Positions 5,194-48,885 of a stretch of DNA of 64,000 nt are shown here, in pieces. Position 1 is the stretch's first letter. Every line of letters starts with the position of its first letter. The notes under the pieces were generated by a model that saw only the letters and a list, made by a program, of their open reading frames with translations, was not told where the DNA came from and did not search any database. The position numbers and the translations under genes were made by a program. Source of the stretch: Cetorhinus maximus (lineage: Eukaryota); NCBI RefSeq assembly GCF_964194155.1, contig NC_135901.1:26660001-26724000 (forward strand), given 5' to 3'.

Positions 5194-5868
5194 TCACTTG
5201 TGAATTCGCTGGTGAATCACAAAGTTGGATGAACGAGTGAACTCTTTCCCGCACACAGAGCAGGTGAACGGTCTCTCCCCAGTGTGAACTCGCTGGTGTC
5301 TCAGCAAGTTGAAAGAATGGGTGAATCCCTTCCCACACACGGAGCAGATGAACGGTCTCTCCCCGGTGTGAACTCTTTGGTGCTCCACCAGACTGGATGA
5401 CTGAGCGAATCCCTTCCCACACACGGAGCAGGTGAACGGCCTCTCCCCAGTGTGAGTTCTCTGGTGTTTCCGCAGGGTGGATGACTGTGTGAATCCCTTC
5501 CCACACTCGGAGCAGGTGAACGGCCTCTCCCCGGTGTGGGTGCGTTGGTGTGTGACCACCTCACTTCTGCTTTTGAAACTCTTCTCACATTCCGAACATT
5601 TGAAAGGTCTCCTGTCAGTGTGAACACGTTGGTGTGTCAACAGACTGGATAACTGTGCGAATTCCTTCCCACATACCAAGCAGGGGAATGGCCTCTCCCC
5701 GGTGTGAACTCGCATGTGGATATGGAGCTTGGATGTCTCTGCAAATCCCTTCCCACAGATAGAGCAGGTGAACGGCCTCTCCCCAGTGTGACTGCGTCGA
5801 TGGATTTCCAGCTGGTACGGATAATTGAATCCCTTCCCACAGTCCCCACATTTCCATGGTTTCTCCAT
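5194..5868 (-). CDS. C2H2 zinc-finger protein (ZNF-1), 8 tandem fingers, no effector domain
   Basis: ORF 5194..5904. First ATG at 5868 in accATGg context gives [27 protein letters not shown]; 8 CxxC-x12-HxxxH units with mostly TGERP linkers; ends HQRIHK*. Confidence 0.9.
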
Positions 5869-6232
5869 GGTGTGGGTGTCATTGCATCTCTCCAGGTTGG
5901 ACAATCAGTTGAAGGCTCTTTCACATAGAACAAGTGTATGGTTTCGTCCCGCTGTGAATGGTGTGGTGTATTTTCAGGCTGTGGAACTGGCTAAAGCTCT
6001 TTCCACAGTCAGTGCACTTGGACACACTCACTCGGGTGTGTGTGTCTCGGTATTTTTCCAGTCACACTGATGTTTGAAATCTTTTTCCCACAGACAGAAC
6101 AGGCAAACGTTCCTCTGTCCACATTCAAAGACAGATGATATTCAGGCTCTGATGAATCAAGTCTCTCGATCAAATACTGATTATGATGTTTGGTTTGAGT
6201 TTCCGGTCCGTAAATCCTTGTCTTCTAATATC
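5869..6232 (-). other. non-coding leader derived from three decayed zinc fingers, preceded by a splice acceptor
   Basis: Acceptor ccttttacag at about 6233-6242. Decayed [42 protein letters not shown] and FN*LSNLER with frameshifts. Confidence 0.75.
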
Positions 6233-6394
6233 CTGTAAAAGGAGTTTACAAAATTCAGCAAGAACAGGATAAAAATTCAGAATGGACAATTCTGGTTTCT
6301 ATGAAACATTCTTTCAACTATCTTGTTTTCCCAAACGCGTCATCCAGTCAAACTGAAAGAAGCCAAAATCAGCATCACAGCCCAAACAAGAGTT

Positions 6395-6860: not shown

Positions 6861-7124
6861 GTTCGAAAACCTGACACCCAGGATGCTCAAGGAGGATGGG
6901 AAGATTCAGGAAAGCAGAAAGGGAAATGTCAAGGTTACAGAGCTCTGCAGCGTTTTGGTAAAAATAAGCAGAGTGGGTCAGGAAGAGACAGCGAGAGTAA
7001 CAAAGCGAATAGGGCATTAGTGACAAAGGTGACATCAGGGAGAATTAGAAAAATATCGAAGCAAAAGGTGCCAGATCTAAATGTGCAAAGTGTTTGCAAC
7101 AAATTAGATGACTGTTCAGGTTGG

Positions 7125-7460
7125 ATCTGCACACAGAACACATGTACAATCGCTCCCAGCTGCACGGTGCGCTATTTTGTTAGGTTTTGTAACTGGTTAA
7201 AACTCTTTCCAGTCAGTGCACTGGAACACTCTCACTCGTGTGTGTGTGTGTGTTTTTCTCAGTGATATTCCAGTCACAATATTGCTTAAAATCTCTTCTC
7301 ACAGTCAGAACAGTCAAACATTTCTCCTTCCACATTCAAAGGCCGATGATATTCAGGTCCTGATGAATCGAGTGACTCTGTCAGATCCTGACATGGTGTT
7401 TGGTTTGAATTTCTCATCTGCAAATCCAACCCTCAAAATACCCTGCAAATGGAGTTAAAA
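7125..7460 (-). pseudogene. extra isolated copy of the decayed zinc-finger leader
   Basis: Homologous to 5940-6240 (gatattcagg.cctgatgaatc, ccagtcac, cagtgcactggaacactctcactcg). Confidence 0.7.
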
Positions 7461-8019
7461 TTGAAATTCTCAGATATTCAAAAAAATAAAGACCATTCTA
7501 TTCAAATACTCTGCTGGTTTCTGTACACCACACACTTCTACTCCCATTCCATGCACCTCATCTTGGCCTTTCAGCTTTTTATTCCATTCCCTTTTCCCTC
7601 ATGTACTTATCTAGTTTCCTTTTGAAATTATCTCAGCTTTTTCCCTCAGTGGTTTCCTGAGTTCTGCATTGTAACCACTCTCTGAGTTTCAGGTGGAAAC
7701 ATTCTCTGCAATCCTACCCCGTCCAACCCATTGATCATTGTAAAGACCTCTATCAGCTCACTGCTAACTCTCCCTTTTTCCTAAAGGAAAAAAAGCCCCA
7801 GCCTGTTTAATCTTTCATAACAGGAGTATTTGTTTTGGTTTACAAAACTCATCACTGTCAATCCAGGATAGAAATTAAGAGACAAGCATGTCTCTTGATT
7901 TGAGTTTGCTGCGTGTAAATCCTCCCCTTCTAACCCCCTGTAAGAGGAGTTTCCAAAACCCCATCCCTGTCAGTCCAGGATAGAAACGCACAACATTCTC
8001 TCCTCCTGCTGACAGGGAC

Positions 8020-8790
8020 AGGGATGACTGCGCATGCGCACTGCTGCATTCTCTGATCAAAATGGCGGCGGTGACCCAGGGTCTGTCATCAGAAACCCCG
8101 CAGCTGCGGCTCCGCTTCATGAAAACGCGGAACCGATGGCTTTGTATTCGGAGCTTGAAGCCCACATAAAGTGTTTGTGAAACCTCCCAGTCCACCCGCC
8201 CGCTCTATCCCTCGCCTGCCCGGGGATATTTTTCACCTCCGCGGATTCCACACCGCCGCTTCCATCCGATTCTGGCACCTACACCGCGCATGCTCCAACC
8301 ACAACCCCCGCACCACGCCTGCGCGGGGGCTGCCGTGGCGGAAGAGAGAGCAACCGCCCCTCATTCAATCCGATTGGCGGGAGGACCCGGCAGCTCTTGT
8401 TCGGTCCTCCAGCCAATCGGCGTGATTGAGGGGGCGGGGCTGGAGGACCGGCTGCCCTCGTTCGGTCCTCCAGCCCCGCCCCCCTCATTCATTCCGATTG
8501 GCCGGGGGACTGGCTGCTCTCGTTCGGTCCTCCAGCCCCGCCCCCCTCATTCACTCCGATTGGCCGGGGGACTGGCTGCTCTCGTTCGGTCCTCCAGCCC
8601 CGCCCCCCTCATTCACTCCGATTGGCCGGGGGACTGGCTGCTCTCGTTCGGTCCTCCAGCCCTGCCCCCTCATTCACCCCGATTGGTTGGAGGACAAACC
8701 GCTCCCGTTCGGTCCTCCAGCCCCGATCCCTCTCTTCCTATTGGTCTGGAATAACAATCAGCCGCTTCCGGATCCTCTCGGGCCTGAACC
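8020..8790. promoter_or_regulatory. CpG-rich putative bidirectional promoter between ZNF-1 and ZNF-2
   Basis: High CpG density; NRF1-type gcgcatgcgc at 8030, YY1-type aaaatggcggc at about 8059, multiple CCAAT (attgg) and GC boxes. Confidence 0.75.
8355..8745. repeat. 62-bp GC-rich minisatellite built from CCAAT plus GC-box units, about 6 units with one inverted
   Basis: Unit cattcactccgattggccgggggactggctgctctcgttcggtcctccagccccgcccccct starts at 8486, 8548, 8610 and 8671; inverted unit at about 8404-8450. Confidence 0.92.
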
Positions 8791-9233
8791 TGAACCAAAG
8801 GCCCCATTGGGAAAAGGTGGTTGTTTCTGTTTAATTAAAATTACTGATAGAGACATGAAAGGTAATTTGCTGTCTTGACCCAAAGTATTTGGTGGAATTA
8901 GAGTGAAGGAGTGGAATTGACCCACAGCCTGAGTCACCAGTTTAAGGACAGGAGGAGAGAGAATCTGGAGAGGAGAAAAGAATAAGTAGGAGACTGGACA
9001 CTGAATCTGGGACAATGAGCAGAGAGGGAGAGGAGTGTGTGGGACAGAGATTTATAGATTTGGGGGAATGAAAGGGGAAAAATGTTCCATAGAAACCAGA
9101 ATTGTCTGTTCTGAATTTCTATCCTGTACTGACACTGATAACTTCTGTAAAAAATAAAAACAGGAAATGCTGGAAAATCTCAGCAGGTCTGACAGCATCT
9201 GTGGAGAGAGAAACAGAGTCAACGATTCGAGTC

Positions 9234-10157: not shown

Positions 10158-10384
10158 CTGTTTTTCTCTCTCCACAGATGCCATCAGATCTGCTGAGCTT
10201 TTCCAGCGTTTTCTGTTTTTATTTCAGATTTCCAGCACCCACAATATTTTGCTTATAACTTCTGTAAACTGCTTTTACAGGGGGTTACAAGGGGAGAAGT
10301 TCCAGGCGAGAAAAATCGTAACAAACATCCTGTCAAGATCTGACACGGCCACTCAATTCATCGGGACCTGAATATCATCGGCCT

Positions 10385-10594
10385 TCACACAGCGAGTGGT
10401 TCGGGTCTGGAATGCACTGCCTGGAAGTGTGGTGGAGGCAGGTTCAATCGAGGCATTCAAGAGGGCATTAGATGGTCATTTAAATAGAAACGATGCGCAA
10501 GGTTATGGGCAAAAGGCAGGAGAATGGCACTAAGTCATAACGCTCATTTGCAGAGCCGGTGCAGACACAATGAATGGGCTGAATGGCCTCCTTC
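10385..10594 (+). mobile_element. CR1 3' fragment fused to the ZNF-2 start
   Basis: ttcacacagcgagtggttcgggtctggaatgcactgcc...ggtgcagacacaatgaatgggctgaatggcctccttc is a CR1 3' end. Confidence 0.8.
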
Positions 10595-11718
10595 AGCTGG
10601 GAACTGATCAACGCAGTCAGACTGCGGAGAGACCATTCACCTGGTCCATGTGTGGGAATGGACTTACTCAGTTATCCAGTGCATTGACAGACCAGCGAGT
10701 TCACACTGGGGAGAGGCCGTTCAGATGTTCTGTGTGTGGGAAGGAATTCGCTGAATCATCTGAGCTACTGGTGCATGAGAAAGTTCACACTGAGGAGAGT
10801 CCATTCACCTGCTCTGTGTGTGGGAAGGGATTCACTCAGTCATCCCATCTCACTGAACATCAACTTGTACACGGCGATCAGAGACCTTTTAAATGTTCTG
10901 ACTGTGAGAAGAGCTTTAAAAGCAAGAAGTATCTGCGAGTACACCAGCGAGTTCACACTGGGGAGAGACTGTTCACCTGCTCTGACTGCGGGAAGGAATT
11001 TGTTCAGTCACACCACCTTCTGAGGCACCAGCAAGTTCACACAGGGGAGAGGCCGTTCACCTGCCCTGACTGCGGGAAGGGATTCACACATTCACACAAC
11101 CTTCTGACACACCAGCGAGTTCACACTGGGGAGAGGCCGTACACCTGCTCTGACTGTGGGAGCGGATTCACTCAGTTATCCCACCTTCTGACACACCAGC
11201 GAGTTCACGCTGGGGAGAGACCGTTCACTTGCTCTGACTGTGGGAAGGGATTCACTCAGTCACACCACCTTCTGACACACCAGCGAGTTCACACTGGGGA
11301 GAGGCCATTTACCTGCTCCGAGTGTGGGAAGGGATTCAGTCAGTCATCCCACCTTCTGACACACAAGCAAGTTCACACTGGGGAGAGGCCATTCACCTGC
11401 TCTGAGTGTGGGAAGGGATTCGCTCAGTCATACCAGCTTCTGATGCACCAGCAAGTTCACACTGGGGAGAGACCGTTTACCTGCCCAGTGTGCGCAAAGG
11501 GATTTACTCAGTCATCAAACCTACTGGTACACCAGCGAGTTCACACCGGGGAGAGACCATTCACCTGCTCCATGTGTGGGAAGGGATTCACTCAGTCATC
11601 CCACCTTCTAACGCATCAGCAGGTTCATAGGGGGGAGAGGCCATTCACCTGCTCCGTGTGTGGGAAGGGATTCACTCGGTCATCCCACCTGCTGAGACAC
11701 CAGCGAGTTCACAAATGA
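10570..11718 (+). CDS. C2H2 zinc-finger protein (ZNF-2), 12 intact plus 1 degenerate finger
   Basis: 382-aa ORF with 12 canonical CxxC-x12-HxxxH fingers and mostly TGERP linkers; ends HQRVHK*. The start ATG lies in CR1-derived sequence, so the true start is uncertain. Confidence 0.88.
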
Positions 11719-18203: not shown

Positions 18204-18795
18204 TCACTTGTGAACTCGCTGGTGTGTCAGCAAGTGAGACGATCGAGCAAATCTCTTCCCACACACAGAGCAGGTGAACGGCCTCTCCCCAGTGTGAACT
18301 TGCTGGTGTGTCAGCAGATTAGATGACTGAGAAAACCCCTTCCCACACACAGAGCAGGTGAATATCTTCTCCCCTGTGTGAACCCGCTGATGTGTCACCA
18401 GGTTGGATGATGAAGTGAATCCCTTCCCACACACGGAGCAGGTGTACGGCCTCTCCCCGGTGTGAACTCGCTGGTGTTGAATGAGGTGAGACGACTGTCT
18501 GAATCTCTTCTCACATTGAGAACAACCGAACGGTCTCTCGTCAGTGTAAACAAGCTGGTGTTTAATTAGATCCGGTGAGATTTTAAAGCCTTTCCCACAA
18601 TCAGAGCATTTAAAAGGCCTCTCATCAGTGTGAACTCGCTGGTGTAACTGAAGGCTGGACATCAGAGTGAATCCCTTCCCACACACAGAGCAGGTGTACG
18701 GTCTCTCCCCTGCATGACTACGCCAGTGAGTTTCCAGCTGGGATGGGCAACGGAATCCCCTTCCCACAGTCCCCACATTTCCACGGTTTCTCCGT
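18204..18795 (-). pseudogene. C2H2 ZNF-3, probably a pseudogene or N-truncated (5 intact fingers, 1 His-to-Tyr finger, first finger frameshifted)
   Basis: ORF 18204..18776; ACG instead of ATG at 18795 and an extra G in gggaaggggattc break finger 1. Confidence 0.72.
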
Positions 18796-19351
18796 GATGC
18801 AGGTGTCCGTGTGTCTCTCCAGGTTGGATGATCAGTTGAAGACTCACTTACATTCAGAACACTTGTCCAGTTTCTCCCTGCTGTGAATGTGGTGATGTTT
18901 CTCCAGGCTGCGTAACTGGTTCATGTTCTTTGCACAGTCAGTGCATTGGAACACTCTCACTCAGGTGTGTGTGTGTGTGTGTGTGTCTTGGTACTTTGGT
19001 TTGCGATCCTTTCCTGTAAATCCTCTCCTTCTAAAACACCTTGTAAAAGAAATTTACAAAACCGAGCCCTGTGAACACAGGATAGGTATTCAGAACAGAC
19101 CGCGCTAGTTCTGACGGAACATTCTTTCTTCTCTCGTTTCCCCAAACATCCACAGCAATGGGCTTGATTTTTACTGCCCTCTGAAATGATCTAACAAACC
19201 ACTCAGCTGTAAAAACGCAGCGGAAAGCAGTAGACCGTGGGCGTACCTACACCAAAGTACCTGCAGCAGGTCAAGAAGGTGGCTCAGCATCACCTTCTCA
19301 AAGGCAATGAGGAACAGGGAACAAATGCCAGTCTTGCCAGCGATGCACACG

Positions 19352-19680: not shown

Positions 19681-19834
19681 AGACGGACTTAAAAGAAACC
19701 ACAAATATGAAACCTATGGGTTTGCTTTCCTGAGTGCAAATTCTCCCTTCCGTAACCCCTTGGAAAAGGAGTTTGGAAAATCCAAGACCGTCAGCCCAGG
19801 ATAGAAAATCACAACATTCTCTCCTCCTGCTGCC

Positions 19835-20010: not shown

Positions 20011-20104
20011 TAAGGCGAATTGACCCTTTTCCCTTCACCCCAGTAATTAATTAATTATAAACGAATTGGGACTCTCAATGTGGAGGTTTGACCCAGCTTC
20101 GCCC

Positions 20105-21335
20105 ACGGTGGAGAATGTCCCCTGTAGACATACTGTATTTTGATTTCCAGAAGGCATTTGATAAGGTGCCACATCAAAGATTATTACGGAAAACAAAAGC
20201 GCATGGTGTAGTGGGTAACATATTAGCATGGGTAGGAGATTGTCTGGCTGGCAGAAAGCAGAGAGTATGCATAAATGGGTCTTTTTCTGAATGGCAGGAT
20301 GTGACGAGTGGCGTCCCACAGTGGGTCTGTACTGGGGCCTCAACTTTTTACGATTCACATCAATGACTTAGATGAGGGGAGTGAAGACCTGGTAGCTAAA
20401 TTTGCAGATGACACAAAGATAAGGTAGGAAAGTAGGTTGTGAAGAGGACCTGAGGAGATTGCAAATGGATACAGGTAGGTTGAGCGAGTGGGCACAGATC
20501 TGGGCAAATGGAGTTTAATGTGGGAAACTGTGAAGTTGTTCACTTTGGAAGGAAGAATAAAAAAAGCAGAGTATTACTTGAATGGAGAACGGCTGCATAA
20601 TTCTGAGGTGCAGAGGGATCTAGGTGTTCTAGTACATGAGTCACAAAAAGTTAGTGTGCAGGTACAGCAAGTAATTAAGAAGGCTAATGGAATGCTATCC
20701 TTTACTACGAGAGGAATTGAACATAAAAGTGAGGATGCTTCAGTTACACACGGAATTGGTGAGACCGCACCTCGAACACTGTGTGCAGTTTTGGTCTCCT
20801 TATTCAAGGAAGGATAGAAATACATTGCAGGCGGTTCAGAGGAGGTTTGCTGGATTGATACCTGGAATGAGTGGGTTGTCTTATGAGGAAAGGTTGGACA
20901 GACTGGGCTTGTTTCCACTGGAGTTTAGAAGAATGAGGGGTGATTTGATTGAAGTTTACAAGATCCTGAAAGGCCTTGACAAGGTGGACGTTGAAAGGAT
21001 GTTTCCTCTTGTGGGTGAGTCCAGAACTAGGGGGCACTGTTTTAAAATTAGGGGTCGCCCTTTTAGGACAGAGGTGGGGAGAAATTTTTTCTCTCAGGGG
21101 GTTGTGCGACTTTGGAACACTCTGCCTCAGAAGGGGGTGGAGGCGGGGTCGCTGAATATTTTTAAGGCAGGGGTAGATGGATTCTTGTTAGGCGAGGGAA
21201 TCGAAGGTTATCGGGGTTAGATGGAAACGTGGAAATCGAAATACAAGATGATCAGCCATGATCTTATTGAATGGTGGAGCAGGCTCGAGAGGCCAAATGG
21301 TCTACTCCTGTTCCTATTTCTTATGTTCTTATATG
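20105..21335 (+). mobile_element. 5'-truncated CR1 LINE between two promoter halves
   Basis: VDILYFDFQKAFDKVPH, GVPQ, RPHLEHCVQFWSPY; 3' tail tcttatgttcttatatg. Confidence 0.93.
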
Positions 21336-21660: not shown

Positions 21661-22003
21661 GAGAGTGGGTGAATGGGTGTTCAGGGTTCTATGTGACCAG
21701 GAGAAAAAAACAATTGACGCCGATTTTATTCTCAGTCTGCAGACAGGGACTGGAAAACTGAACCCAGGCAGAGAGGAGAGGGAGGGAGGGAGAAAACTGG
21801 GGGCGGAGGAAAGAAATGGTGTAGATGGGTGAGATGGGTTTGGATTTCAGCCTGGGGAGGAAGGGAGAGTGTGTGGGGGGACGGGGATTTACAGCTTTGG
21901 GGGAAACAAGAGAAGGAAAAAAATATTCCACAGAAACTAGAATTGTCTTCTGAATTTCTATCCTGGACTGACAGTGAATGACTATTATAAACTCCTTTCC
22001 CAG

Positions 22004-22557
22004 GTTATTAGAATGGAGGATTTGCCTACAGGAACCTCAAGCATCGTGTCAAGAGCTGACAGAGTCACCCGAGTCAGCAGGACATGAGTATCATCAGCCT
22101 TTGAATGTCGAGGAAGAAATGTTTGCCTGTTCTGTCTATGGAAAAAATATTACAAACTTCGGTGTGACTAGAAAAGCACCGGGACACACACACACACACC
22201 CGAATGAGAGTGTTCCAGCGCACTGACTGTGAAAAGAGCTTTCACCTGTTACACAGCCGGAATAAACATCACGCCATTCACAGCGGGGAGAAACTAAACT
22301 GTACAGCCGCTGTGTGTGTGTGTGTGTGGATGAGGATTCAACTGATTGTTTCACCTGGAGAGACACCAGGACACTAACACCACGGAGGAGCCATGGAAAA
22401 TGTGGGGACTGTGGAACCGGATTCATCCCCCCCAATCCCTGCGGGAAATGCATCGGCGTATCCACACTGGGGAGAGGCCGTTCACCTGCTCCGAGTGTGG
22501 GAAGGGATTCACTGTGTCGCCCAATCTGCTGAGACACCAGGACGTTCACAAGGTGAC
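22004..22557 (+). pseudogene. C2H2 ZNF-4 pseudogene (decayed leader plus 2 fingers, frameshifted)
   Basis: Acceptor ttcccag at 22003; decayed leader; ACG at 22382; extra A in tggaaaatgt; one intact finger [21 protein letters not shown]. Confidence 0.8.
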
Positions 22558-22819
22558 TGCAGAGGGTTTGGATTCCACTGTTATTCCTGTGGTTAATCAC
22601 CTCCAGGACTGGACAACGTTCATTTTGTGACACTTGGGTGTCTGTTTCTGCTGCTGACGATGATCCCCATAACTGGGCTGGAGGTTAATATTCTGGATGA
22701 ATGTCAAATAAATCAGCTTGGTTTCAAACAGATAGTGGGTGGAGTGTTTGTTTCCTCCAGGATAAGAGGAACTAATTAAAATCCTGTTCCAGAAAGATTT
22801 GTATTTTTGCAGCCAACAA

Positions 22820-27774: not shown

Positions 27775-29049
27775 TCACTTATGAACTCTCTGGTGGGTCA
27801 GCAGATTGGATGACCGAGTGAATCCCTTCCCGCAGACTGAGCAGGTGAACGGCCTCTCCCCGGTGTGAACTCTCTGGTGTGCGGTGAAATCAGATGAAGA
27901 CCTGAACCTCTTTCCACAGGAAGTGCAGCTGAACGGCTTCTCCTCAGTGTGAACCCGTTGGTGTGACCAAAGGCCGGATGACTGAGTGAACCCCTTCCCG
28001 CACACGGAGCAGATGAATGGCCTCTCCCCAGTGTGGATGCGCTGGTGCGCAGTGAGGTCTGATGACTGCCTGAAGCTCTTTCCGCAGTGAGTGCAGCTGA
28101 ATGGCCTCTCCTCAGTGTGTATCCGCTGGTGAAACATCAGGCTGGCCGACTGAGTGAATCCTTTCCCGCACACGGAGCAGGTGAAGGGCCTCTCCCCGGT
28201 GTGAACTCGCTGGTGCGCCGTGAGGGTGGACAGCTGCCTGAAGCTCTTTCTGCAGTGAGTGCAGCTGAATGGCTTCTCCTCAGTGTGAATCCGCTGGTGT
28301 ACCATCAGGTTGGCCGACTGAGTGAACCCCATCCCACACACGGAGCACGTGAACGGCCTCTCCCCAGTGTGGACGCGCTTGTGCGCATTGAGGTTGGACG
28401 AAGACCTGAACTTCTTTCCGCAGGAAGTGCAGCTGAACGGCCTCTCCCCTGTGTGATTTCGCTGGTGCGTCAGCAGGGCTGATAACTGAGTGAATCCCTT
28501 CCCGCAAACAGAGCAGGTGAACGGCCTCTCCCCGGTGTGATCTCGCTGGTGGGACCAAAGGCCGGACGACTGAGTGAATCCTTTCCCGCAGATGGAGCAG
28601 ATGAATGGCTTCTCCCCGGTGTGAGTGCGCTGGTGTATCAGCAGGGTGGAGGACTGAGTGAATCTCTTCCCGCACACGGAGCAGGTGAACGGCCTCTCCC
28701 CAGTGTGAATTCGCTGGTGTGCAGTGAGGGTGGACGACTGCCTGAACCTCCTTCCACAGTGAGTGCAGCTGAACGGCCTCTCCTCAGCGTGAATTCGCTG
28801 GTGTGACATGAGGCAGGCTGACTTGGTGAACCCCTTCCCACACTCAGAGCAGATGAACGGCTTCTCCCCAGTGTGGCTGCGCCGATGGATTTCCAGTAGG
28901 CACGGATAATAGAATCCTTTGCCACAGTCCTCACATTTCCACGGTCTCTCTGTGATGCCGGCCCCGGTGTGGCTGCGCCGGTGGTACTCCAGCCGGGATG
29001 GATAATTGAATCTCTTCCCACAGTCCTCACATTTCCACGGTTTCTCCAT
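27775..29049 (-). CDS. C2H2 zinc-finger protein (ZNF-5), 15 tandem fingers, no effector domain
   Basis: 424-aa ORF from accATGg (MEKPWKCEDCGKRFNYPSRLEYHRRSH) to HQRVHK*; all 15 fingers canonical. Confidence 0.93.
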   Translation of the reverse strand: MEKPWKCEDCGKRFNYPSRLEYHRRSHTGAGITERPWKCEDCGKGFYYPCLLEIHRRSHTGEKPFICSECGKGFTKSACLMSHQRIHAEERPFSCTHCGRRFRQSSTLTAHQRIHTGERPFTCSVCGKRFTQSSTLLIHQRTHTGEKPFICSICGKGFTQSSGLWSHQRDHTGERPFTCSVCGKGFTQLSALLTHQRNHTGERPFSCTSCGKKFRSSSNLNAHKRVHTGERPFTCSVCGMGFTQSANLMVHQRIHTEEKPFSCTHCRKSFRQLSTLTAHQRVHTGERPFTCSVCGKGFTQSASLMFHQRIHTEERPFSCTHCGKSFRQSSDLTAHQRIHTGERPFICSVCGKGFTQSSGLWSHQRVHTEEKPFSCTSCGKRFRSSSDFTAHQRVHTGERPFTCSVCGKGFTRSSNLLTHQRVHK

Positions 29050-29380
29050 GGTGCGGGTGCCCTTGTGTCTCTCCAGGTTGGACGATCAGTCGCAGCCTCG
29101 TCCACACGCAGTTACGCGTGGACGGTTTCCCCCCCGCGGTGAACGGTGTGGTGTTTTTTTCAGGCTGTGTAACTGGTCCAAGCTTCTGTCACAGGTCTGT
29201 CTCGGTGCTTTTCCAGTCACGCTGATGTTTGAAATCTTTACCCACAGGCAGAACAGACAAATATTTCTCCTTCTATATTCAAAGGCCGATGATATTCAGG
29301 TTCTGATGAACCTCTTGTCAGATTTTGACCTGATGCTTGATTTGATTTGGTTGTTCCTCTGTCAATGCTCCCCTAATCCC
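29050..29380 (-). other. decayed zinc-finger leader of ZNF-5 with upstream splice acceptor
   Basis: Acceptor ccttttccag at 29381-29390; FQTSA*LEKHRD and CD*SSNLERHKGTRT-M. Confidence 0.75.
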
Positions 29381-29504
29381 CTGGAAAAGGAGTTGAAAAG
29401 AGTCCTCACTGTAAACACAGGATGTAAATTCAGAACAGACAGTTCTAGTTTCTGTGCAATATTATTTCCCCCAAATCTGTCAACCCCAGTCTCTGTCTCT
29501 CAAA

Positions 29505-35095: not shown

Positions 35096-35727
35096 AAAGT
35101 TTGGACAGCTTTCTCGGCTGGTCCGTTTGACGCTGGGCGGTGAGGCGCAGTTCGGACGTGTTTACCGCTGTTTAGATGGGCGAAGTTCTGAAATTCAGCG
35201 CTTGTAAATACGGCTCCATTGTCTGATACATTGGCTTCGGGCGATCCGTGAGTGGAAACGCATTGGCGTAACCTTTCGATGGTGGAGTGCGACGTGGGTG
35301 ATCTCACCTCAAAAATCTCCATCCGTTTTGAGTCCGTGTCGATGACGAGCAAAAACGTTGAGCCCAGGGATGGATCCAGGTCGCCCACATGGATTCGCGC
35401 CCATGGTCTCAGCGGCCAGGCCATTCCCGAGGGTGTAGTGGGGGGCTGCGGCTGGCCATTTCTGTTGCAGTTGGCACCGCTGACGGTGCTCGAATAACTT
35501 CTCGATATCCGCATCCACGCCGGGCGTCTGCACGTAACTCCCGGTGAGCGTTTTCATTTTAGAAATACCCGGACTAGTGCCGTGTAATTCGGCTAGGGGC
35601 AGTTGCCTGCCTGGTACGGGGGCGGCTAACACTTGCTCCCCAAACTGCGACGCCATCCCGACAACTCAAGTCGTATTTGCGTGGTATTTGAAATCCCTTG
35701 ATTGGGTTGGAGTTGGCGGATCTTAAG

Positions 35728-37232
35728 GTCGCGTCTGGATCTGGAAAAATTTATTGATTTTGCTTCCAATTTCCACCCCTCCATCATTTTCACATGGTCC
35801 ATCTCTGACACTTCCCTTCCCTTCCTTGACCTCTCTGTCTCAATTTCTGGTGAAAGGCTGTCCACCAATATTCATTACAAGCCTACCAACTCCCACAGCT
35901 ACCTCGACTACAGCTCCTCACACCCCGCTTCCTGTAAGGACTCCATCCCATTCTCTCAGTTCCTTCACCTCCGTCGCATTTGCTCTGATGATGCCACTTT
36001 CAAAAACAGTTCCTCTGACATGTCTTCCTTCTTCCTTAACCGAGGTTTTCAACCCACAGTGGTTAACAGGGCCCTCAACCGTGTCCGGCCCATCTCCCGC
36101 GCATCCGCCCTCACATCTTCCTCTCCCTCCCAGAACCATGATAGGCTCCCCCTTGTCCTCACTTATCACCCCACCAGCCTTCGCATTCAAAGGATCATCC
36201 TCCGCCATTTCCGCCAACTCCAGCATGATGCCACCACCAAACACATCTTCCCTTCACCCCCCCTGGTGGCATTCCACAGGGATCGTTCTCTCCGGGACAC
36301 CCTGGTCCACTTCTCCATCACCCCCTACACCTCAACCCCCTCCCACGGCACCTTCCCATGCAACCGCAGAAGGTGCAACACCTGCCCCTTTACTTCACCT
36401 CTCCCCACTGTCCAAGGGCCCAAACACTCCTTTCCAGTGAAGCAGCATTTCACTTGCACTTCCCTCAATTTAGTCTACTGCATTCGTTGCTCCCAATGTG
36501 GTTTCCTCTACATTGGAGAGACCAAACACAGACTGAGTGACCGCTTTGCGGGACACCTTTGGTCTGTCTGCAAGCATGACCCAGACCTCCCTGTCGCTTG
36601 CCATTTCAACACTCCACCCTGCTCTCATGCCCACACGTCCATCCTTGGCTTGCTGCATTGTTCCAGTGAAGCTCAACGCAAACTGGAGGAACAGCACCTC
36701 ATCTTCTGACTGGGCACTTTACAGCCTTCTGGATTGAATATTGAGTTCAACAATTTTAGATCATGAACTCTCTCCTCCATCCCCACCCCCTTTCTGATCC
36801 CCCTTTTTTCCAATAACTTATATAGATTTTTCTTTTCCCATCGATTTCCATTATTTTAAAATGTATTTCCATCCATTGTTTTATCTCTACCTTTTAGCCT
36901 ATTTCATTCCCTTCCCTTCACCCACCCCACCCCCACTAGAGCTAACTGTACCTTGCTCGTCCTGCTTTCTACCCTTAATGTCACCTATTATCACATTCCT
37001 TAGATAATATCACCACTTTCAACACCTCTTTGTCCTTTTGTCTATGACATCTTCTGGTTATCTCCACCTATCACTGGCCCTCTATCCAGCTCTACCTGTC
37101 TCACCCCCACCTTAAACCAGCTTATATTTCACCCCTTTTCTATTTTTCCTTAGTTCTGTTGAAGAGTCATACGGACTTGAAACGTTAACTGTGTTCCTCT
37201 CCGCAGATGCTGTCAGACCTGCTGAGTTTTCC
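35728..37232 (+). mobile_element. Penelope-like element (RT C-terminus, GIY-YIG, pLTR)
   Basis: ORF 35702..36709: LPFLDLSV, HYKPTNSHSYLDYSSSHP, SIPFSQFLHLRRICS, NLVYCIRCSQCGFLYIGETK; hammerhead-like motif at 37152-37190. Confidence 0.93.
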
Positions 37233-39762
37233 CATGCTTAAAAAGTACTTTGACAGGGAAGATGACCAAATGGAGGTATTACTGGTGGTAGATAAGAGAA
37301 AGAGGTAGAAATGAAGGATTCTGAAATTGACTTTCCTTTAAATTGGATAATGAGGGGGTACTTAAAAATTAAATGTAACATTGAGTTACCTTCTAGGCAA
37401 TTTTCCAAGTGATTTAGAGAAGTTGTTGCGGTTACACAAAGCTATTTGTGGGAATAAGCTAGGGAGGGCAAATTTAGTTGTGCATGATGTAAATGTGGGT
37501 GATGCAGTTTCAATAAGGAAACATCCTTATGGATTAAGTCCAGCAAAATTATCACAAGTACAGAAAGAAATCAAATTCATGCTTCAAAATGATATCATAG
37601 AGTCTGGTTGCAGTAACTGGAGTTCACCTATTGCGCTGGTCCTGAAACCGGATGGAACACAAAGGTTATGTGTGGATTATCGAAAAGTAAATGCAGTGAC
37701 AAAAGCGGATTCATATCCTATTCCAGGGTTGGAAGATTGTCTTGAGAAAGTGGGACAATCAAAGTTTATCACAAAGATCGACTTTCTGAGAGGATATTGG
37801 CAAGTGCCATTATCGGAGAGGGCAAAAGGAGATACCGGCTTTTGTGACACCAGATGGACCATATCAATTTAAAGTTGGTATGAAAAATGCACCAGCAACA
37901 TTTCAAAGGCTGATAAACAAAGGAATTGCAGGGCTGAGCAATTGTGCTGTTTATATCGACGACTTGATAGTTTTCAGGCAAACGTGGGAGGAGCATTTAC
38001 AACATCTGAAAGAACTGTTTGATCGACTTCGAGAAACTAATTTGGTGGTGAACTTGGCTAAAGAGTGAATTTGCAAAAGTGCAAGTCACACATCTAGGCC
38101 ATGCCATTGGACGTGGTAAGGTAGCTCCGAGAGATGTGAAAATAAAAGCCATTGTGAATTTCCCAGTGCCTACAACAAAAGAAGTTTTGAGATATCTGGG
38201 GATGAGTGGATTTTATCAGCAATTTGTACCAAATTTTAGCAGCATGGACGCTGCATTGACTGAACTGTTAAAAAAGAACAAGAGGTTTCAGTGGGCACAG
38301 GAGTGTCAGAAAGCATTTGGCAGTTTAAAAACTATGTTGACTGCAACACCAGTTTTTTCGGCAGAACCTAATTACGCCAAGCCATCTAAGCTGCCATTTG
38401 ATGCGAGTGATGTAGGTGTTGGTGCTGTACTGTTGCATGATGATGAGGCTGGAATTGAGAAACTGATAGGATATTTTTCGCGCAAGCTGAATGTGCATCA
38501 TTCAACCATTGAAAAGGAGACTCTGGGTCTGGTATTAGCAGTACAGTGTTTCAAGGTTTATGTTGCAAGCAATTCTTCAGAAACAATTGTTTATGCAGAT
38601 TTCTGGACAAATTTCAAGACCAAGAAAGTGCAAGACTGTTCAGATGGAGTTTATTACTGCAGCCGTTTAATTTACAGATTATACATGTGGCTGGACGAGG
38701 AAATCTAATTGCAGATGCATTGTCGAGAGCTTAAAGCTCAAAAGGAAACTGGACATTTAAAACCTGGATGCTGGACTGAAATGACCCCTGTTGACACAAA
38801 GGATTTGTAAATATTGCTGTGTTAACGCATGTCCCTGGTAATGTAACGGTTTGTGTACATCGTTAAGTATAGTAAGTAATGTAAGATGGATTGAGAAAAT
38901 GGAGCCATCTTTTAAAGTTATGACAGTTCATTTTTCCATAAGGATGGAGGTGTCACAAAACTATAATAAGTTTCATAATATCATTGTGGCTTATTGTAAA
39001 GTAGGTTTATGGGTGTGAGTATAGCTCGTTTGGTCTGTGTGATTTAATTAAATTAGAGTCAGATAGGCTGCAAGCTGAAATTATCCAAAGAAGCTAGGGG
39101 TAAAAGGCATTTGGAATGCGAATGAGTAAATATGGATGAGGCCTTAGCATGTAGGGTGTGAAGGAATTTTGCATTTTTAGATAAGCGAAAGAGTTGTTTG
39201 GGTTTCAAAGGGATGGTAGGATGTTCACAACTAACAAGATAAATAGGGCAAGGTTATTATGTTTATTTTTCCCAAAAGGTACTGACCATATTGGCAACAT
39301 GAAAGATTTTTATATTATGGGAAAAGTACATTTCCAAAGACATATAGAACAATGGAATTTACAGATTAAAGACAGAGAAACATATATAAATAAAAGAGGA
39401 AGTTGATGTTGTGGGGATATACAAGAACTAGAAGGAGTGTCTAAAACAGTCTTGGGGAAGCCTCCAGCCATGTTTGCAAAAGTCTGCTGTGTCCAGTAAC
39501 TAGTGATTAGGAACTTTGGGATGTGTTATAATGTTAAGACACTGTAATCTTATGTATGTGCTTGAAATCTTTTCATTGGTTAATAAATGTTTTAATTTAG
39601 TTCTTAAGATCTCTAGAAGGTGTGAGCGGACTCATTACTTCTGAATCCAGTGCCCAAATCTTCTCGCAATAAATACAAATTGCAAAACTGTTGTGATAGT
39701 GTAGCCAAGTTTCCCTTGTGGGTTTAGTCTGCCTGGCACACAACACCTGCCGCGTCATAACA
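37233..39762 (+). mobile_element. Gmr1-like Gypsy, 3' half (post-integrase linker, RT, RNase H, 3' LTR)
   Basis: RLCVDYRKVN, GMKNAPATFQR, VYIDDLIVF, DASDVGVGAVL, STIEKETL, ADALSRA*; no integrase after RNase H; PPT 38940-38950; LTR 38951-39762. Confidence 0.9.
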
Positions 39763-42700
39763 GTAACAAAATGCTTTCACTTCCTCGGAGACTGGCTCAT
39801 TTAACCATCCTGTAAGTATCTGGTCTCTCACTTTGGGCAGAAGCGGGTCTTGATTGGTCCAGTTCCTGATCTGCTTTGCACAGATGGGCAACTTGTCTAA
39901 AACATTCAATGCAAGGATAATTTCTTGGGGTACAGGGGTGTGTAAGATACTTTCTTGCAAAGGTTAGTGGCTAAGGGCATCCGCGTTCGCTATGCATATC
40001 TCAGGTCGGTGCTTGAAAATGTATCCGTAGGTGGGCAGAATTAATGCCCATCGCTGAATTCTTGCCAAAGCTATTGGCGGGATAGCCTTGTCTTCTTTGA
40101 AAAGGCCCAGAAGTGGTTTATGATTGGAGATGATAGTAAAGTGCCTGCCATGTAAGTACTGGTCGATTTTTAAAAAAAACTCTGATGACTATTGACAGTC
40201 CTTCCTTCTCGACCTGTGAATAACCTTCCTCGGCCGCTGAGAGGGTTCTTGATACATAACCTATTTGGCCTCTCAGAACCGTCGTCTGTTTCATGGGACA
40301 ATACTCCGCCAACGCCATACGGAGAGGTGTCGCGGGTCAATATCAATTCTTTAGCTGGGTCAAAGTGCACTAACAATGTTGAGGAGTGCAGCAGTTGTTT
40401 TACTCTGTTGAAGGCTGACTCCTGTGGGCCAACAATGGTGTTTCTTCAATAGTGTGTGCAAGGTGGCCAAAACAGTTGATAAGTTTGGTAAAAATCACCC
40501 GTAGTAGTTTACCATCCCTAAACATGATTTGAGTTTGTGGGGGAAGGCGCCTCCTTTGTCACCTTAACCTTTTCTTCCACAGGGTGTAATCCTTGTGCAT
40601 CTACGCGGTGCCCAAGATAGGTAACTTCGGTGACTTGGATAGTGCATTTCTCCTTTTTTTATGTGGGCTCCAGCTTCCTCCTCCAAATTTGGTAAATGCT
40701 CAGCCCCTGTTGATCCAGTTGTGAGGACATCGTCAAGGTGGGCTACAACCCATGGCAATTCCTGTAGCAAACTCTCCATCATCCTTTGAAGTATTTGAGG
40801 ATACGCCAAAAGGTAGACACGTGTAGTGGAATAGGCCTTTGTGTGTGTTTATCATGACATACCCCCCCGGGATGTGTTATCCAACTCGAATTGCTGGTAC
40901 GCGAGGCTCATCTCCAACTTAGTGTAGGATTGACCTCCTGCCAGCTTTGCGTACAAGTTTTCAATTCTTGGGATTGGGGGGTATTTATCCAACTTGGTGG
41001 CCCGATTGACTGTTAGCTTATAATCGCCGCAAATGCGGACGGCCTTATCCGGTTTCAGAACGGGGATGATTGGTGCTGCCCATTTCCGAAAATTGAACCG
41101 GCTGTATGATGCCTAGTTTTTCCAACCTGTTTAACTCAGCATCCACTTTTTCCTCTTAAGGCATATGGTACTGGTCTTGCCTTAAAAAGAAACGGGGAGT
41201 TGCCTGTGGATCAATATAAATCTTGGCTTGCAAGCCATTTTTCTGAACTTGTTACGAAAGGAGCTGTCGTATTTTTTTTTAAACAATTCTAGCATTCCTC
41301 CTGCCCGTACTTGAAAAATCTCAGACCAAATTAACTTGATTGCTTTTAGCCAATCACGGCCCGGAAGAAGGCTTGGTCCTTTCCCAGTCACTATTATTAC
41401 TGGGAGCTGGGCTGACTGCTGCCCATAGCTCACAGATGCCATGGCGGTGCCTTTTACTTTCATGGCTTCTCCCGTGTAAGTCTTCAACTGGGCGGAAGTT
41501 CTCTCCAGGCTTAAGGGCTAGGTACCTTATCTCGGGTACTGAAATGTGCGCTCACCCATCGCTGTGGCTGATGCCCCTGTATCTACCTCCATATCTAGAG
41601 GCTTCCCATTTATGTGGAGTGTAACAGTGATATGGTTTGCCTTGACCACTTTAAGATTAAAAAGAGTGTGAATGTCAGGATCAGTCATTTCAGGCTCTTC
41701 CACATTATGTACTTCTTTGCTGGCTGGTTACTTGGCAATCTGGACCTGGCTCTGCCATGCTTTATCAAATGCCCTCTTTTGCGACAGTAGTAGCACTCGG
41801 CCTCCTTAAATCTACATGTTTCAGAAGTGCGGTTACCCCCACATCAGTAACAATTCAACTTCAGGGTCGCTGTCTGATTGCCACCGGTATGTTTTTTTTG
41901 ATTTCTGGGTGATTGGGAAACGATTCCCACTTCGCGGCTGCTTCCGCGGTTTTGGCACCACATCTGCCTGCAGGGCTCCCTCCCTAACTGGTAAACAGCG
42001 CCATTTTGCGAGCTCTGTAGCTCCTGCAAATCTTTATCAATGCTTTCCATGGCCAGCGCTATCTCCATTGCTCGTTTAAAATTGATATCTTCTGCCTGCA
42101 ATTGACGCTGAATGGCACACAACAAACCAACCCATCCCGTAGCACCTCATTCACGGTCGCTCCAAAATCACCATGCTCTCACAATGGCTTCAACTTAGCA
42201 ATTTAATTCGCTATCAATTCACCTGGGGCCCTCACCCTCATTTTAAATTTGAATCTTTGCACAATGACGGATGGTTTACGGCTGAAAATGGCCCTTTGCT
42301 AAATCCACGAGCTCACTGAACGATTCAGAGTCGGGCGCGCTTGGGGCTGTGAATAAGGTTGTAGGTTTGACTCCCAAAGGCGCTCAAGAGAACTGCTTTG
42401 CGCTTTTCCTCCTCCCCTGTTTAGAAATAAAACCCGAGGCCGCGTATTGAGGCCAGTCCTCTGTGTGGGGGGTGGGGCCGGGGGGAGTCAAATGGGTCGC
42501 TCCTCCCAAAGGGAGGCATCCTGGTGAGTATATATTTTTTTCCTTCTTTAAAAGGAGATACTCACAGTTGTAGGGCGAGAGGCAGCACCAGGGTCATTTA
42601 TCCTCGTCGCCAGATGTAGAGAGGTTACGACCGAGAGGCTTCTGTGGTTGAACACCGAACTTTATTTACAGAGCTGCTGGATTAGCTGCAGGTCCCTCGC

Positions 42701-44842: not shown

Positions 44843-45288
44843 GTGACTTTGTGGGAATGGGAAATTGTGAGGGACTGAAATTTACAGCTTTGGGAAACAA
44901 GAGAGTAAAATATATCTGCTAGAAACTAGAATTATCTGTTCTGAACTTGTGGCCTGGACTAACCTGTCTAAACTGGTTTTACAGTGTTATAAGGATTGGA
45001 TGGACAGATAGGAAACTCAAATCGAACATCACATCGAGATCTGACCGATTCACTCAATTCATCAGGACCTGAATATCATTGGCCTTTGACTGAGGAAGGA
45101 ATGTTTCTCTGATCTGTCCGTGGGAAAAGATTTCAGACATCAAGTGTGACTGGAAAAGCACCGAGACACACACACACACACACACACACACACCCGAGTG
45201 AGAGTGTACCAGCGAACTGACTGTGGAAAGAGCTTTACACAGCCTGAAAAAAAAATCACACCGTTCTCAGCGGAGAGAAGCAATATAC

Positions 45289-45945
45289 ATGTGTGTTGTG
45301 GACGAGGCTTCAAGTGATCATCCCAACCTGGAGAGACACAAGGACACCAACACTACGGAGAAACCGTGGAAATGTGGGGACTGTGGGAAAGGATTCAGCT
45401 ACCCGTCTGAGTTGGAAATTCATCGACGCACTCACACCGGGGAGAGGCCATTCACCTGCACTGCGTGCGGGACGGGATTTTCTCGTTTGTCCAACCTGCA
45501 GAGACACCAGCGTATTCACTCCGACGTGAGAATCTTTAAATGCTCCGACTGTGAGAAGAGCTTTAAAAGCAGCAGTGACCTGCAGAAGCACCAGCGCACT
45601 CACACCGGAGAGAGGCCATTTGCCTGCCCCGTGTGTGGGAAGGGATTCACGTGTTCATCCAACCTGCTGAAGCACCGGCGCACTCACACTGGGGAGAGGC
45701 CGTTCATCTGCTCTGTGTGCGGGAAGGGATTCACTGGGTCTTTCACCCTGCTGCAGCACCAGCAAGTTCACACGGCAGAGAGGCCATTCACCTGCTCCGA
45801 GTGCGGGAAGGGATTCACCCGTTCGTTCACCCTGCTGTCACACCAGCGAGTTCACACTGGCGAGAGGCCGTTCACCTGCCCTGTGTGTGGGAAGGGATAC
45901 ACTCGGTCGTCTCATCTCCTGAGACACCAGGTAGATCACGACTGA
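45289..45945 (+). CDS. C2H2 zinc-finger protein (ZNF-6), 7 fingers
   Basis: ORF 45223..45945. First in-frame ATG at 45289; ACG at the paralogous start position (45355); 7 fingers from [21 protein letters not shown] to [21 protein letters not shown]. Confidence 0.85.
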   Translation: MCVVDEASSDHPNLERHKDTNTTEKPWKCGDCGKGFSYPSELEIHRRTHTGERPFTCTACGTGFSRLSNLQRHQRIHSDVRIFKCSDCEKSFKSSSDLQKHQRTHTGERPFACPVCGKGFTCSSNLLKHRRTHTGERPFICSVCGKGFTGSFTLLQHQQVHTAERPFTCSECGKGFTRSFTLLSHQRVHTGERPFTCPVCGKGYTRSSHLLRHQVDHD

Positions 45946-46335: not shown

Positions 46336-48057
46336 TTTGTAAAACATCCCAAGGTGCTTCACAGATGGCCAAAAGCTTGGCCGAAGAGGTAGATTTCAAG
46401 AAGTATCTTAAAGGAGGAGAGAGAGGTTTAGGGAGGGAATTCCAGAGCTCAGGAACTCGGTAGCTGAAAGCACGGCCACCGATGCTGTCGTGATGGAGGT
46501 AGGGGATGCATTGGATGAGAGCAGGGAGCTCGGAGAGTCATGGGCTGAAGGAGGCTCCAGAGGGGAGGAGGAAGAGGAGGCTCCACAAATAACACCGTTC
46601 TCAACGATGGGAGAGCCCAACACATCAATGCAAAAGATGAGGCTGGAGCATTTGCAACCACCTTCAGCTAGATGTGCTGAGTGGATGATCCATCATGTTC
46701 CCCAGCGTCACAGATGCCAGTCTTCAGCCAATTCGGCTCCACGTGATATTAAGAAGGACTCTGGTCCTCCAGCCAATCAGAGCGCGAGCTTTGCGCTTAT
46801 GAAGATTGAGCTTCACCCCCAACAAATACTTCCTCGCGGGTCCAACATCTGTGCGTAAAGCACTTTCTTCCCTCCCCTTTCCATTTAGTTTCCGATTCTC
46901 GGTTTATTTCTGTTGATTTTAGTTTGATTGTTACAGTAAAAGCTTTTCTCGAGCGAAATCTTGCCCTTTGGTTCATGCCCTTGGAATTGTCTGAGAACTG
47001 GTTTATCGTAGAAGTGACCAGTCTCCATGGAGACCGTGGCAACATCGATATGTCTAGTATTGTTAACATGGTACACATGAGATATATCATTTATGGTTCT
47101 GTAATAAAGTATATTGATTACTATTACTAGTCTTGTAATACATGACTGTAGTTGCCTTATACATTTCCAGTCGTGGGGTCATTACAGCACAGAAGGAGTC
47201 CAATCTGAAACGCGGGCTCTTTCCTCCCCCCTTTCCATTTCTTTGCTGGTTCTGGGTTTGTTTGCTGTCGATTTTAGTTTGGTCGTTACATTAAAGTTTG
47301 TAATCTTGCTCTTCAGTTTACTCCCTCGGTGTTTGCCTGAGAATTGGTTTCTTTTAAAGCCGTCGGTCCCCATGGGGATTGCAACCGCATTGATATGTCC
47401 TGCGTCGTCACACGGTACATATGAGATATGCTATTTGTGCTTCGATCATAAAGTACACATTATTTCTAGCCTTGTCGTATAGTCCTGTGGCAATGGCATA
47501 TATTTCCAGTCGGAGAGCCATTGTGGCACAGAAGGTGCCCATTCGGCCACTCGTGGCCCATGCCGACTCTCTGTGGAGCAATCCAGTCAGTCCCATTCCT
47601 CCTCTATATCCCCATTCCCCAGCAAGTTTATTTCCTTCAAGTGCCCGTCCAATTTCATTTTGAAACCGTTCGTCTTGGCAACCACCAGGCTCATAGGCAG
47701 CAAGCTCCAGGACACGGCCACTCGCTGCTTAAATAAAGTTTTTCCTCACATTGTCTCCTGTATTTCTAATCAATCAATGTAGTACTGTATATCGCACACA
47801 TTTTTAGTCCAGTTTTATCCATATATGAAATATATACGTATGGCGAACAGCCTGCATGAAGATTTTCTTATCTTTGTGTCCCAGACAGAAAGCGGTGAAT
47901 TGGGAAGGTGTATATTCGGTACCAACAGAGTGAGAATGGAGGGAGTGTGTGTGTGGGGCTGGAGATTTACAGCTTCAGGGGAACGAGAGACAAAAGAATG
48001 TTCCATCGAAGCCAGAATTGCCTATTCGGCGCTGACTTTTGCAACTCCTTTTCTCAG

Positions 48058-48885
48058 GATATTAGAAGGGGAGGATCTACAGACAGAAACCTCAAACCGA
48101 ACATCACATCATTTTCTGACAGAGCCACTCAAGATTCATCGGGACCTGAATTTCACTGACCACTGATTCTTGGAGGAGAAGTGTGTGTCTGTTCTGTCTG
48201 CTTCAAAAGGTTTTAAACATCAGTGTGACTGGAAAAGCACCAAGACACACACACACCCCTCCCAAGTGAGAGTGACCCAGTTCACTCAGAGAATTTTACA
48301 GTCTGAAAATACATCGCACCACTCAGAGCAGGGAGAGACCAGACCAGAACTGTTGCGTGTGTGGACGAAGCTTGAACTGCCCGTTGAAACAGGAGAGACA
48401 GAAGGATACGCGCACCATGGAGGAGGAAAAAGTGCTGGAAGCTCATTGATGTGTTCACACTGGGGAGGGGCCTTTCACCTGCTCTGTGTGTGGGAAGGGC
48501 TTCACTCAGTTATCCAGCCTGCAGACACACAATCACATTCGCACTGGGGAGTGTCAATTCACCTGCTCTGTGTGTGGGAAGGGCTTCACTCGGTTATCCA
48601 GCCTGCTGAGACACCTTGGTGGCCACACCAATGAGAGACCTCTCCAATGCTCTGACCGTGGGGGGTGACTTTAAGAACTCTGAGGAACTAATGGTCCACC
48701 AGCGCATTCACACTGAGGAGAGACTGTTCAACTGCTCTTGCTGCACAAAGTGGTTTAGAACGTCATCCAGCCTGAGCAGACACCAGCGAGTTCACACCGG
48801 GGACAAGCCATTCATCTGCTCTGTGTGCGGGAGGGGATTCACTCAGACATCCACCCTGCAGAGACACCGGCGAGCTCACAAGTGA
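48058..48885 (+). pseudogene. C2H2 ZNF-7 pseudogene (decayed leader plus about 5 fingers, frameshifted)
   Basis: Acceptor ttttctcag at 48057; accATGg at 48417 followed by a deleted first finger; fingers split over ORFs 48486..48668 and 48616..48885. Confidence 0.82.

Follow-up and report, generated by a model that had tools for sequence, protein, structure and literature searches.

A leader of fossil zinc fingers shared across a shark C2H2 gene family is likely a neutral coding remnant

The window, that is, the whole 64,000-nt stretch of Cetorhinus maximus DNA analyzed here, contains seven tandem C2H2 zinc-finger loci interspersed with retroelement fragments. The first locus, ZNF-1, is preceded by a leader that reads as three decayed fingers carrying two TGA stop codons (TGA1 and TGA2). 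In our judgment this leader is, with good probability, a neutral coding remnant: a founder gene gained an ATG in a finger linker, lost three fingers to two stops, and then multiplied locally. The shared stops are likely inherited scars rather than switches. A sequence-only reading had proposed both a fossil-finger leader and a regulatory role for it. The first proposal was borne out, with an open paralog on contig C1 as evidence that the leader once coded for protein. Regulation by the stops or by an upstream open reading frame (uORF) was not borne out, since rates and codon retention match those of neighboring sequence.

The leader and its copies

The ZNF-1 leader spans 364 nt on the minus strand, from a predicted splice acceptor at 6233 to the ATG at 5868. 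Its parts are as follows (the C1 gene and the short subfamily are described below).

6233..6300, minus strand: intron end with a branch-point-like sequence and a pyrimidine tract; AG at 6234-6233 is the predicted acceptor of the finger exon
6112..6232, minus strand: fossil spacer of ~40 codons with pN/pS 1.00; its frame is open both in the C1 gene and in the family majority sequence
6040..6111, minus strand: fossil finger 1, containing TGA1 at 6064-6062, where the C1 gene has TGG, and a 1-nt insertion near 6082
5954..6016, minus strand: fossil finger 2, its pattern intact yet out of frame; the third-stop site is TGC in this copy
5869..5935, minus strand: fossil finger 3, which has lost its second His and contains TGA2 at 5907-5905; the C1 gene and the short subfamily read CGA at that codon

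All 11 TGA codons that had been listed from the sequence alone read TGA on the strand given. A third stop, which that list did not include, is polymorphic: it arises by a TGC-to-TGA change in finger 2, and among 71 family copies it was found as TGA in 33 and as TGC in 25. The acceptor CAG is retained in 65/71 copies. The family's upstream ATG (uATG) is ACG in the ZNF-1 leader. Between fossil fingers 1 and 2 lies a CA microsatellite (6036-6047 and its homologues) that ranges from 4 to 27 nt; it is a common source of frameshifts and is interrupted in the C1 gene.

The other window copies align to the ZNF-1 leader at 69-79% identity with bit scores of 152-282; the best score among 200 shuffled ZNF-1 leaders was 32.8 bits. 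The loci and the associated elements are listed below.

5194..5868, minus strand: ZNF-1; ATG in ACCATGG, a former TGEKP linker; 224 aa with 8 intact C2H2 fingers, the ORF without an effector domain
7100..7508, minus strand: extra leader copy with TGA1 at 7276-7274, lacking TGA2 and the ATG
7895..8500, minus strand: partial acceptor-region copy (7895-8004) adjoining a promoter-like, GC-rich stretch that contains GCGCATGCGC and GCCGCCATT, motifs we take to be NRF1- and YY1-like
10253..11715, plus strand: ZNF-2; 12 fingers, separated by unrelated sequence from the one part of the leader that is present, the spacer (10253-10385)
18207..19127, minus strand: ZNF-3; TGA2 at 18834-18832 in a leader that lacks finger 1, ACG in place of the start codon, and a frameshift in the first coding finger
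21919..22627, plus strand: ZNF-4; full leader (TGA1 22165, TGA2 22343), ACG at 22382, array broken
27775..29467, minus strand: ZNF-5; TGA1 at 29219-29217, TGA2 at 29088-29086, ATG at 29049-29047; 424 aa, 15 fingers
44908..45945, plus strand: ZNF-6; leader with TGA1 at 45147, an out-of-frame TGA2, and ACG at 45355; an alternative in-frame ATG at 45289 in fossil finger 3 gives a 218-aa ORF with 7 fingers
47994..48882, plus strand: ZNF-7; TGA1 at 48226, TGA2 changed to TGC, array broken

The claim that the leader is kept in six of seven loci plus one extra copy stands for the six leader-bearing loci and for the extra copy; the seventh locus, ZNF-2, keeps only the first ~130 nt. Also as claimed, exactly 12 codons (36 nt) separate an in-frame TGA2 from the ATG (5868-5866) in ZNF-1, and the spacing is the same in ZNF-5. 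The same spacing follows TGA2 at 18.8 kb and 22.3 kb, where the start position is ACG. At 45.3 kb the start position is again ACG, and a 1-nt insertion throws TGA2 out of frame. Thus, the ATG is present in 3 of the 6 leader-bearing loci (at 5.9, 29.0, and 48.4 kb) and is ACG in the other three.

The window contains 55 C2H2 finger patterns of the form C-x2-C-x12-H-x3-H with TGE[KR]P linkers. Pfam PF00096 scored above its cut-off in all four ORFs scanned, which places them among the Kruppel-type C2H2 proteins; KRAB (PF01352) was absent from the best 22-25 families for each of these finger-exon ORFs. Partial acceptor-region copies also occur at 9077-9151, 19718-19825, and 44480-44647 in addition to 7895-8004. 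Close to every promoter-like stretch, an acceptor-like segment is duplicated (7895-8100, 19718-19825, and 44350-44647) with GCGCATGCGC and GCCGCCAT motifs beside it, a pattern that suggests small repeated 5′ exons. Broken frame pieces, LINE-like and LTR-retroelement-like by their motifs, lie between the genes at 253-1208, 20061-21217, 35702-36706, 37366-38065, 40567-42146, 51739-53782, and 56120-60253.

The window sits on C24, a 65-Mb contig of the 4.0-Gb genome (G000). The ZNF-1 leader used as a genome query gave 2,950 first-look candidates, mostly on C24, of which 40 were scored; genes with the broken-finger leader number in the hundreds and likely in the thousands. Exact leader patterns of 24-27 nt had 89, 436, and 468 genome matches, counts that include near-identical duplicates; of the 89 matches, C24 has 64, small contigs have 20, and the remaining 5 are on large contigs other than C24. 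When C24 was sampled evenly (40 samples of 10 kb), 20 contained at least five fingers. Genome-wide dispersal of the leader, a trait of transposon cassettes, was not seen, and paralog introns are colinear over more than 1 kb. Five leader copies off C24 (L175-L179, on C6, C13, C22, C25, and C26) have 0-1 fingers nearby in four cases and 8 in the case of C22. Between 0.3 and 18 Mb of C24, many positions carry near-identical sets of leader patterns, a recurrence pointing to large recent segmental duplications or to a collapsed or expanded assembly.

For the comparisons below, 123 full leaders were extracted and reduced to 71 by de-duplication at 93% identity (28 taken without bias, 34 located through a finger-2 pattern, and 9 that were top matches to the leader), together with 15 short-type copies; 17 extra copies were added for the substitute-ATG test only. 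The tree of leader copies is star-like, with unsettled bootstrap support.

The open C1 gene and the origin of the stops

The leader is fully open in one gene, the 12-finger C1 gene (G000:C1:215369484-215370540; L073:628-1750, minus strand), in which an uninterrupted frame runs from the acceptor across all three leader fingers into nine more. At the stop sites it reads TGG (TGA1), TGC (third stop), and CGA (TGA2), and a His-containing linker occupies the position of the family ATG. It is the sole finger array within 120 kb. A GC-rich promoter-like stretch lies ~5.5 kb upstream (near 215376000), and a second acceptor-like copy lies at 215372854-215372944. TGG at the TGA1 site was found in five genome matches, and the four besides C1 are read as back-mutations because they retain TGA2. 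A single contig from another organism, from a run guessed to be RNA, covers the C1-specific finger 3-4 junction gap-free with 22 differences in 194 letters, a hint that the C1 gene is conserved there. Compared with the majority sequence, C1 gave a pN of 0.05 and a pS of 0.12 (7 and 6 changes; not significant, p 0.11), and in the tree it belongs to the basal polytomy and does not branch off before it. No orthologue emerged when proteins were searched with the open C1 leader; of 15 candidates, 6 were non-shark poly-finger matches. Nor was there one among the best 120 of 861 generic matches; another representative search was swamped by long finger arrays. The open three-finger leader was present in 0 of 295 retrieved proteins.

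A short sister subfamily (n = 15) provides a third type. It lacks fingers 1-2 and starts MEGKST, its finger 3 is coding with CGA, its linker is intact, and most copies have their own upstream TAA (examples are L035:920-1222, L043:2756-3061, and L057:7079-7384). Comparison of the majority, C1, and short types shows that the linker codons T-G-E became ACC ATG GAG, a context we take to be a strong Kozak sequence.

The proposal that both TGAs predate the amplification of the family held up on three grounds: the open C1 gene, the TGA2 allele counts, and the presence of TGA1 in four other organisms. By genome pattern, the TGA2 alleles were 89 TGA, 1 CGA, 1 GGA, and 0 CAA. TGA2 does derive from CGA, and CpG sites nearby are mixed, as independent CpG decay of CGA codons in many copies would have it. 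However, decay should give CAA about as often as TGA, and CAA was missing from these matches and from the 71 aligned copies alike, while the TGA1 site in the open copy is not at a CpG. Independent decay is therefore excluded for practical purposes. In putative RNA contigs from four other organisms, TGA1 made up 98.5-99.9% of depth, as did the prevailing letters at several neighboring sites, and TGA2 was seen in the loose-end letters listed for the contigs of two of the four. The third stop reached 46% in one of these organisms and was at ~1% or absent in three. It is polymorphic here as well, so it is younger; it is also mixed within supported clades of the tree.

Proteins with the MEKPWKC start or the decayed finger 3 were found in Chiloscyllium, Heterodontus, Mustelus, and Pristiophorus, and in none of the five ray proteins viewed. 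These genera fall on both sides of the galeomorph-squalomorph split, which dates the founder to before that split. The closest named proteins to the ZNF-1 N terminus come from sharks and rays. Elasmobranch models named "zinc finger protein-like" share the MEKPWKC or MEGKST N termini with the leader family; for instance, Chiloscyllium and Pristiophorus models begin MEKPWKC and one Mustelus model begins MGKPWKC. These models carry automatic names and no account of a leader. Three ray proteins (P0176, P0177, and P0254) share the basic N-terminal peptide MG-W-S...DPKL-G--RPRVVLRRL-L, which is followed by a spacer with weak similarity to that of the shark family (E 0.013 against the fossil spacer, in the 295-protein set). 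Its core PRVVL fits PxVxL, and HP1 ligands have PxVxL-type motifs within basic clusters (PMC12526061). It is possible, judging from these predicted proteins, that the peptide is an effector exon absent from the shark family. The peptide had no Pfam match, and a single query of G000, run without a positive control, did not find it. In 1.45 Mb of DNA it gave one weak match (E 0.014), which has an in-frame stop and lies upstream of a short-subfamily gene (L031).

Tests of function in the leader

The sequence-only reading had asked whether the TGAs are more conserved than neighboring sites, and the alignment of paralogs showed no excess. TGA1 was kept in 63/70 copies (92nd percentile of 294 non-CpG triplets) and TGA2 in 53/71 (44th percentile); other, out-of-frame TGA triplets in the leader, the polymorphic third stop aside, were kept at 0.77-0.93. 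With the same flanks fixed, TGA1 was kept in 436 of 511 genome matches, compared to 436/524 for the next codon (p 0.39) and 436/470 for an upstream codon, relative to which TGA1 was less kept (p 0.0002). TGA1 aligns with TGG in the open copy, and a TGA-to-CGA change, the alteration once suggested for reporter assays, matches the ancestral state at TGA2 only.

Several further measures bear on neutrality. First, pN/pS in the 71 copies was 1.00 for the spacer and 1.07, 1.14, and 1.24 for fingers 1-3, compared to 0.58-0.61 after the ATG. The 12 codons between TGA2 and the ATG gave 0.63, a value that counts against plain neutrality. Second, only 25 of 204 leader indels up to TGA2 were multiples of three. 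Third, intact (n = 32) and broken (n = 28) genes retained TGA1 (30/31 versus 26/28), TGA2 (27/32 versus 22/28), and the uATG (22/30 versus 20/25) equally, all with p above 0.5. Finally, paralog pairs with colinear introns, top-match loci left out, showed similar divergence (K) in leader and intron and equal gap rates (0.053 and 0.042 in 18 recent pairs; 0.120 and 0.114 in 12 mid-aged pairs). The medians for recent pairs were 0.037 for the leader and 0.0375 for the intron (Wilcoxon p 0.86), and the comparison of leader with coding divergence gave a p of 0.10. In the recent and mid-aged pairs and at codons, then, the leader, TGAs included, changed at the neutral rate, the outcome that had been named beforehand as speaking for simple shared ancestry. 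In the oldest 11 pairs the leader was less diverged than the intron (0.147 versus 0.189; 8/11).

The leader is probably exonic and present in mRNA, to judge from contigs guessed to be RNA and representing paralogs in other organisms. Putative RNA contigs from four runs span the leader and coding fingers (e.g., 5750-6009 and 5768-6029), and summed contig depth, itself a poor measure in which contig joints reflect paralog noise, drops more than 250-fold from the 6046-6157 bin to the 6270-6381 bin in all four. The frame from the acceptor is blocked by stops or frameshifts in all C24 copies examined and is open in the C1 gene.

If the TGAs were recoded, by readthrough, selenocysteine insertion, or A-to-I editing, the three fingers could still be translated. 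At the TGA1 site the open copy codes for Trp (TGG), and TGA-CTG resembles a leaky-stop context, both of which fit such recoding. Against it, leaders carry a median of 3 frameshifting indels, those of intact genes included, pN/pS is ~1, and the third stop is present in 33/71 copies. In the putative RNA contigs of the four runs, the third base of TGA1 was A, not G, in 98.5-99.9% of depth. Neither a maintained frame nor purifying selection upstream of the stop, as programmed readthrough entails, was found, and we give recoding almost no credence.

A second possibility is that the uATG and TGA1 form a conserved uORF, or that TGA2 insulates the start, and that either tunes translation across the family. 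The majority sequence does have a 15-codon uORF ending at TGA1, TGA1 lies in the upper conservation range, and most copies have TGA2 in frame, with 12 codons separating it from the ATG. However, the uATG was kept in only 50/66 copies (47th percentile), is lost in both ZNF-1 and ZNF-5, and is retained equally by broken genes. The number of uATGs per leader varies from 0 to 9, and an out-of-frame uORF overlaps the start in 11 of 32 intact genes. A uATG and stop kept above background, more so in functional genes, would mark a regulatory uORF; this was not seen, and we regard such tuning as very improbable.

A third alternative is that the leader and ~500 nt of adjoining intron are kept by selection on DNA or RNA, as a splicing, protein-binding, or chromatin element, with the stops incidental. 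It draws on the 8 of 11 old pairs above and on a block of low divergence that runs from ~500 nt upstream of the acceptor as far as the ATG, seen in 20 copies of a subfamily located at 33-64 Mb of C24. In this derived subfamily, the median K was 0.072 for the leader, 0.070 for the nearest 400 nt of intron, and 0.138 for the distal intron, from 79 non-independent pairs, and the leader and near intron were also less diverged than the first coding finger (0.12). Its copies are unusually near the family majority sequence (0.92-0.98, compared to 0.82-0.96 for unbiased copies). The branches that join the subfamily (L002-L030 and L180-L193) to the family root are short, and five copies have AGT where TGA1 is aligned. 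On the other side, no deficit was found in the 30 recent and mid-aged pairs, and leader identity was equal in intact and broken genes (medians 0.898 and 0.893). All 20 copies had been picked by the leader itself (8 as top leader matches and 12 by leader pattern). The block takes in intron, and the third stop occurs in a mixed state inside supported clades, as paralog exchange would give. On these grounds we read the block as paralog exchange or regional rate variation and consider DNA- or RNA-level selection quite unlikely. Substitution rates do vary along shark chromosomes (PMC13100897), and the shark mutation rate is low (PMC10587355), which helps explain why the fossil fingers are still legible.

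Some arrays may have a substitute start in the leader. Among 87 copies, an in-frame leader ATG was found in 5 of 13 open arrays that lack the usual ATG, compared to 0/14 ATG-less broken arrays (p 0.016) and 2/38 open arrays with the ATG (p 0.008), in a test chosen after the data were seen and with p values that ignore relatedness; the other 8 of the 13 have no such ATG. The five arrays are window 45289-45945, L071, L085, L105, and L137. In three of them the substitute Met falls within the opening codons of finger 3, a site at which ACG readily turns into ATG, and TGA2 is lost or out of frame; ZNF-6 (45289) is one case. Loss of the ATG and loss of TGA2 were marginally linked (p 0.053).

Proposed history, parallels, and meaning

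The neutral-remnant reading would unfold as follows. In the founder gene, a new start codon would have arisen in the TGEKP linker after the third finger, and the three fingers ahead of it would have been lost to two stops. Local duplication of this founder would then leave most copies with the same scars. Slow shark substitution, a star-like radiation, and paralog exchange may together keep the finger pattern recognizable in the majority sequence. A ribosome would either scan through the several weak upstream ATGs, no single one of which is conserved, or reinitiate downstream of them. We infer the order of these events, the use of the ATG in ACCATGG, and the role of the leader as the 5′ untranslated region of a spliced mRNA. 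A broader scenario seems unlikely to us: the founder of a shark finger-only chromosome shed both three fingers and a coding N terminus kept in rays as the PxVxL-like peptide, C1 is a surviving gene of the ancestor type, and the leader and intron form an exchanged cassette, a reservoir of start codons that rescues ATG-less arrays.

Conserved uORFs and programmed stop-codon readthrough likewise show an upstream ATG-to-TGA frame or in-frame TGAs in the 5′ region; unlike them, the leader family shows no excess conservation and its frame is not maintained. Tetrapod KRAB zinc-finger clusters are similar in being birth-and-death Kruppel-type arrays with TGEKP linkers and many pseudogenes, and degenerate N-terminal fingers occur in single genes. 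The leader family differs from them in that the four scanned ORFs gave no KRAB match. No precedent for a family-wide conversion of fingers to leader was found in the literature searched (mostly open papers), where neither this leader nor a zinc-finger chromosome in sharks was described. KRAB families have been reported as enriched among the families lost in cartilaginous fishes (PMC8455134). A further parallel is the cyprinid FiNZ-ZNF family (Wells et al. 2023, PMC10547256), whose tandem C2H2 genes, hundreds in number, occupy one transposon-rich region, zebrafish Chr 4q, with an upstream exon preceding a single finger exon; the leader family is similarly concentrated in one chromosome region, on C24. 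However, FiNZ genes have an acidic 28-aa N-terminal domain on a coding exon, whereas the ORF of the leader family starts within the finger exon, behind three dead fingers. The main text of that paper does not mention sharks, skates, or cartilaginous fishes (PMC10547256).

The finding reveals no new control device. It carries an annotation warning that many models of the family have a wrong or missing start, and the common leader offers a single target to block or tag the whole family, as was done for the zebrafish FiNZ genes (PMC10547256). The three shared marks can be used to trace the family across sharks. If the ray N terminus were in fact an HP1-binding effector lost in sharks, it would bear on how cartilaginous fishes put finger arrays to use without KRAB. 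As matters stand, this is a clear case of coding sequence that became leader a single time and was afterwards spread over a chromosome, while one gene still shows the ancestral state. The finding dates and roots what looks like the largest gene family of this genome.
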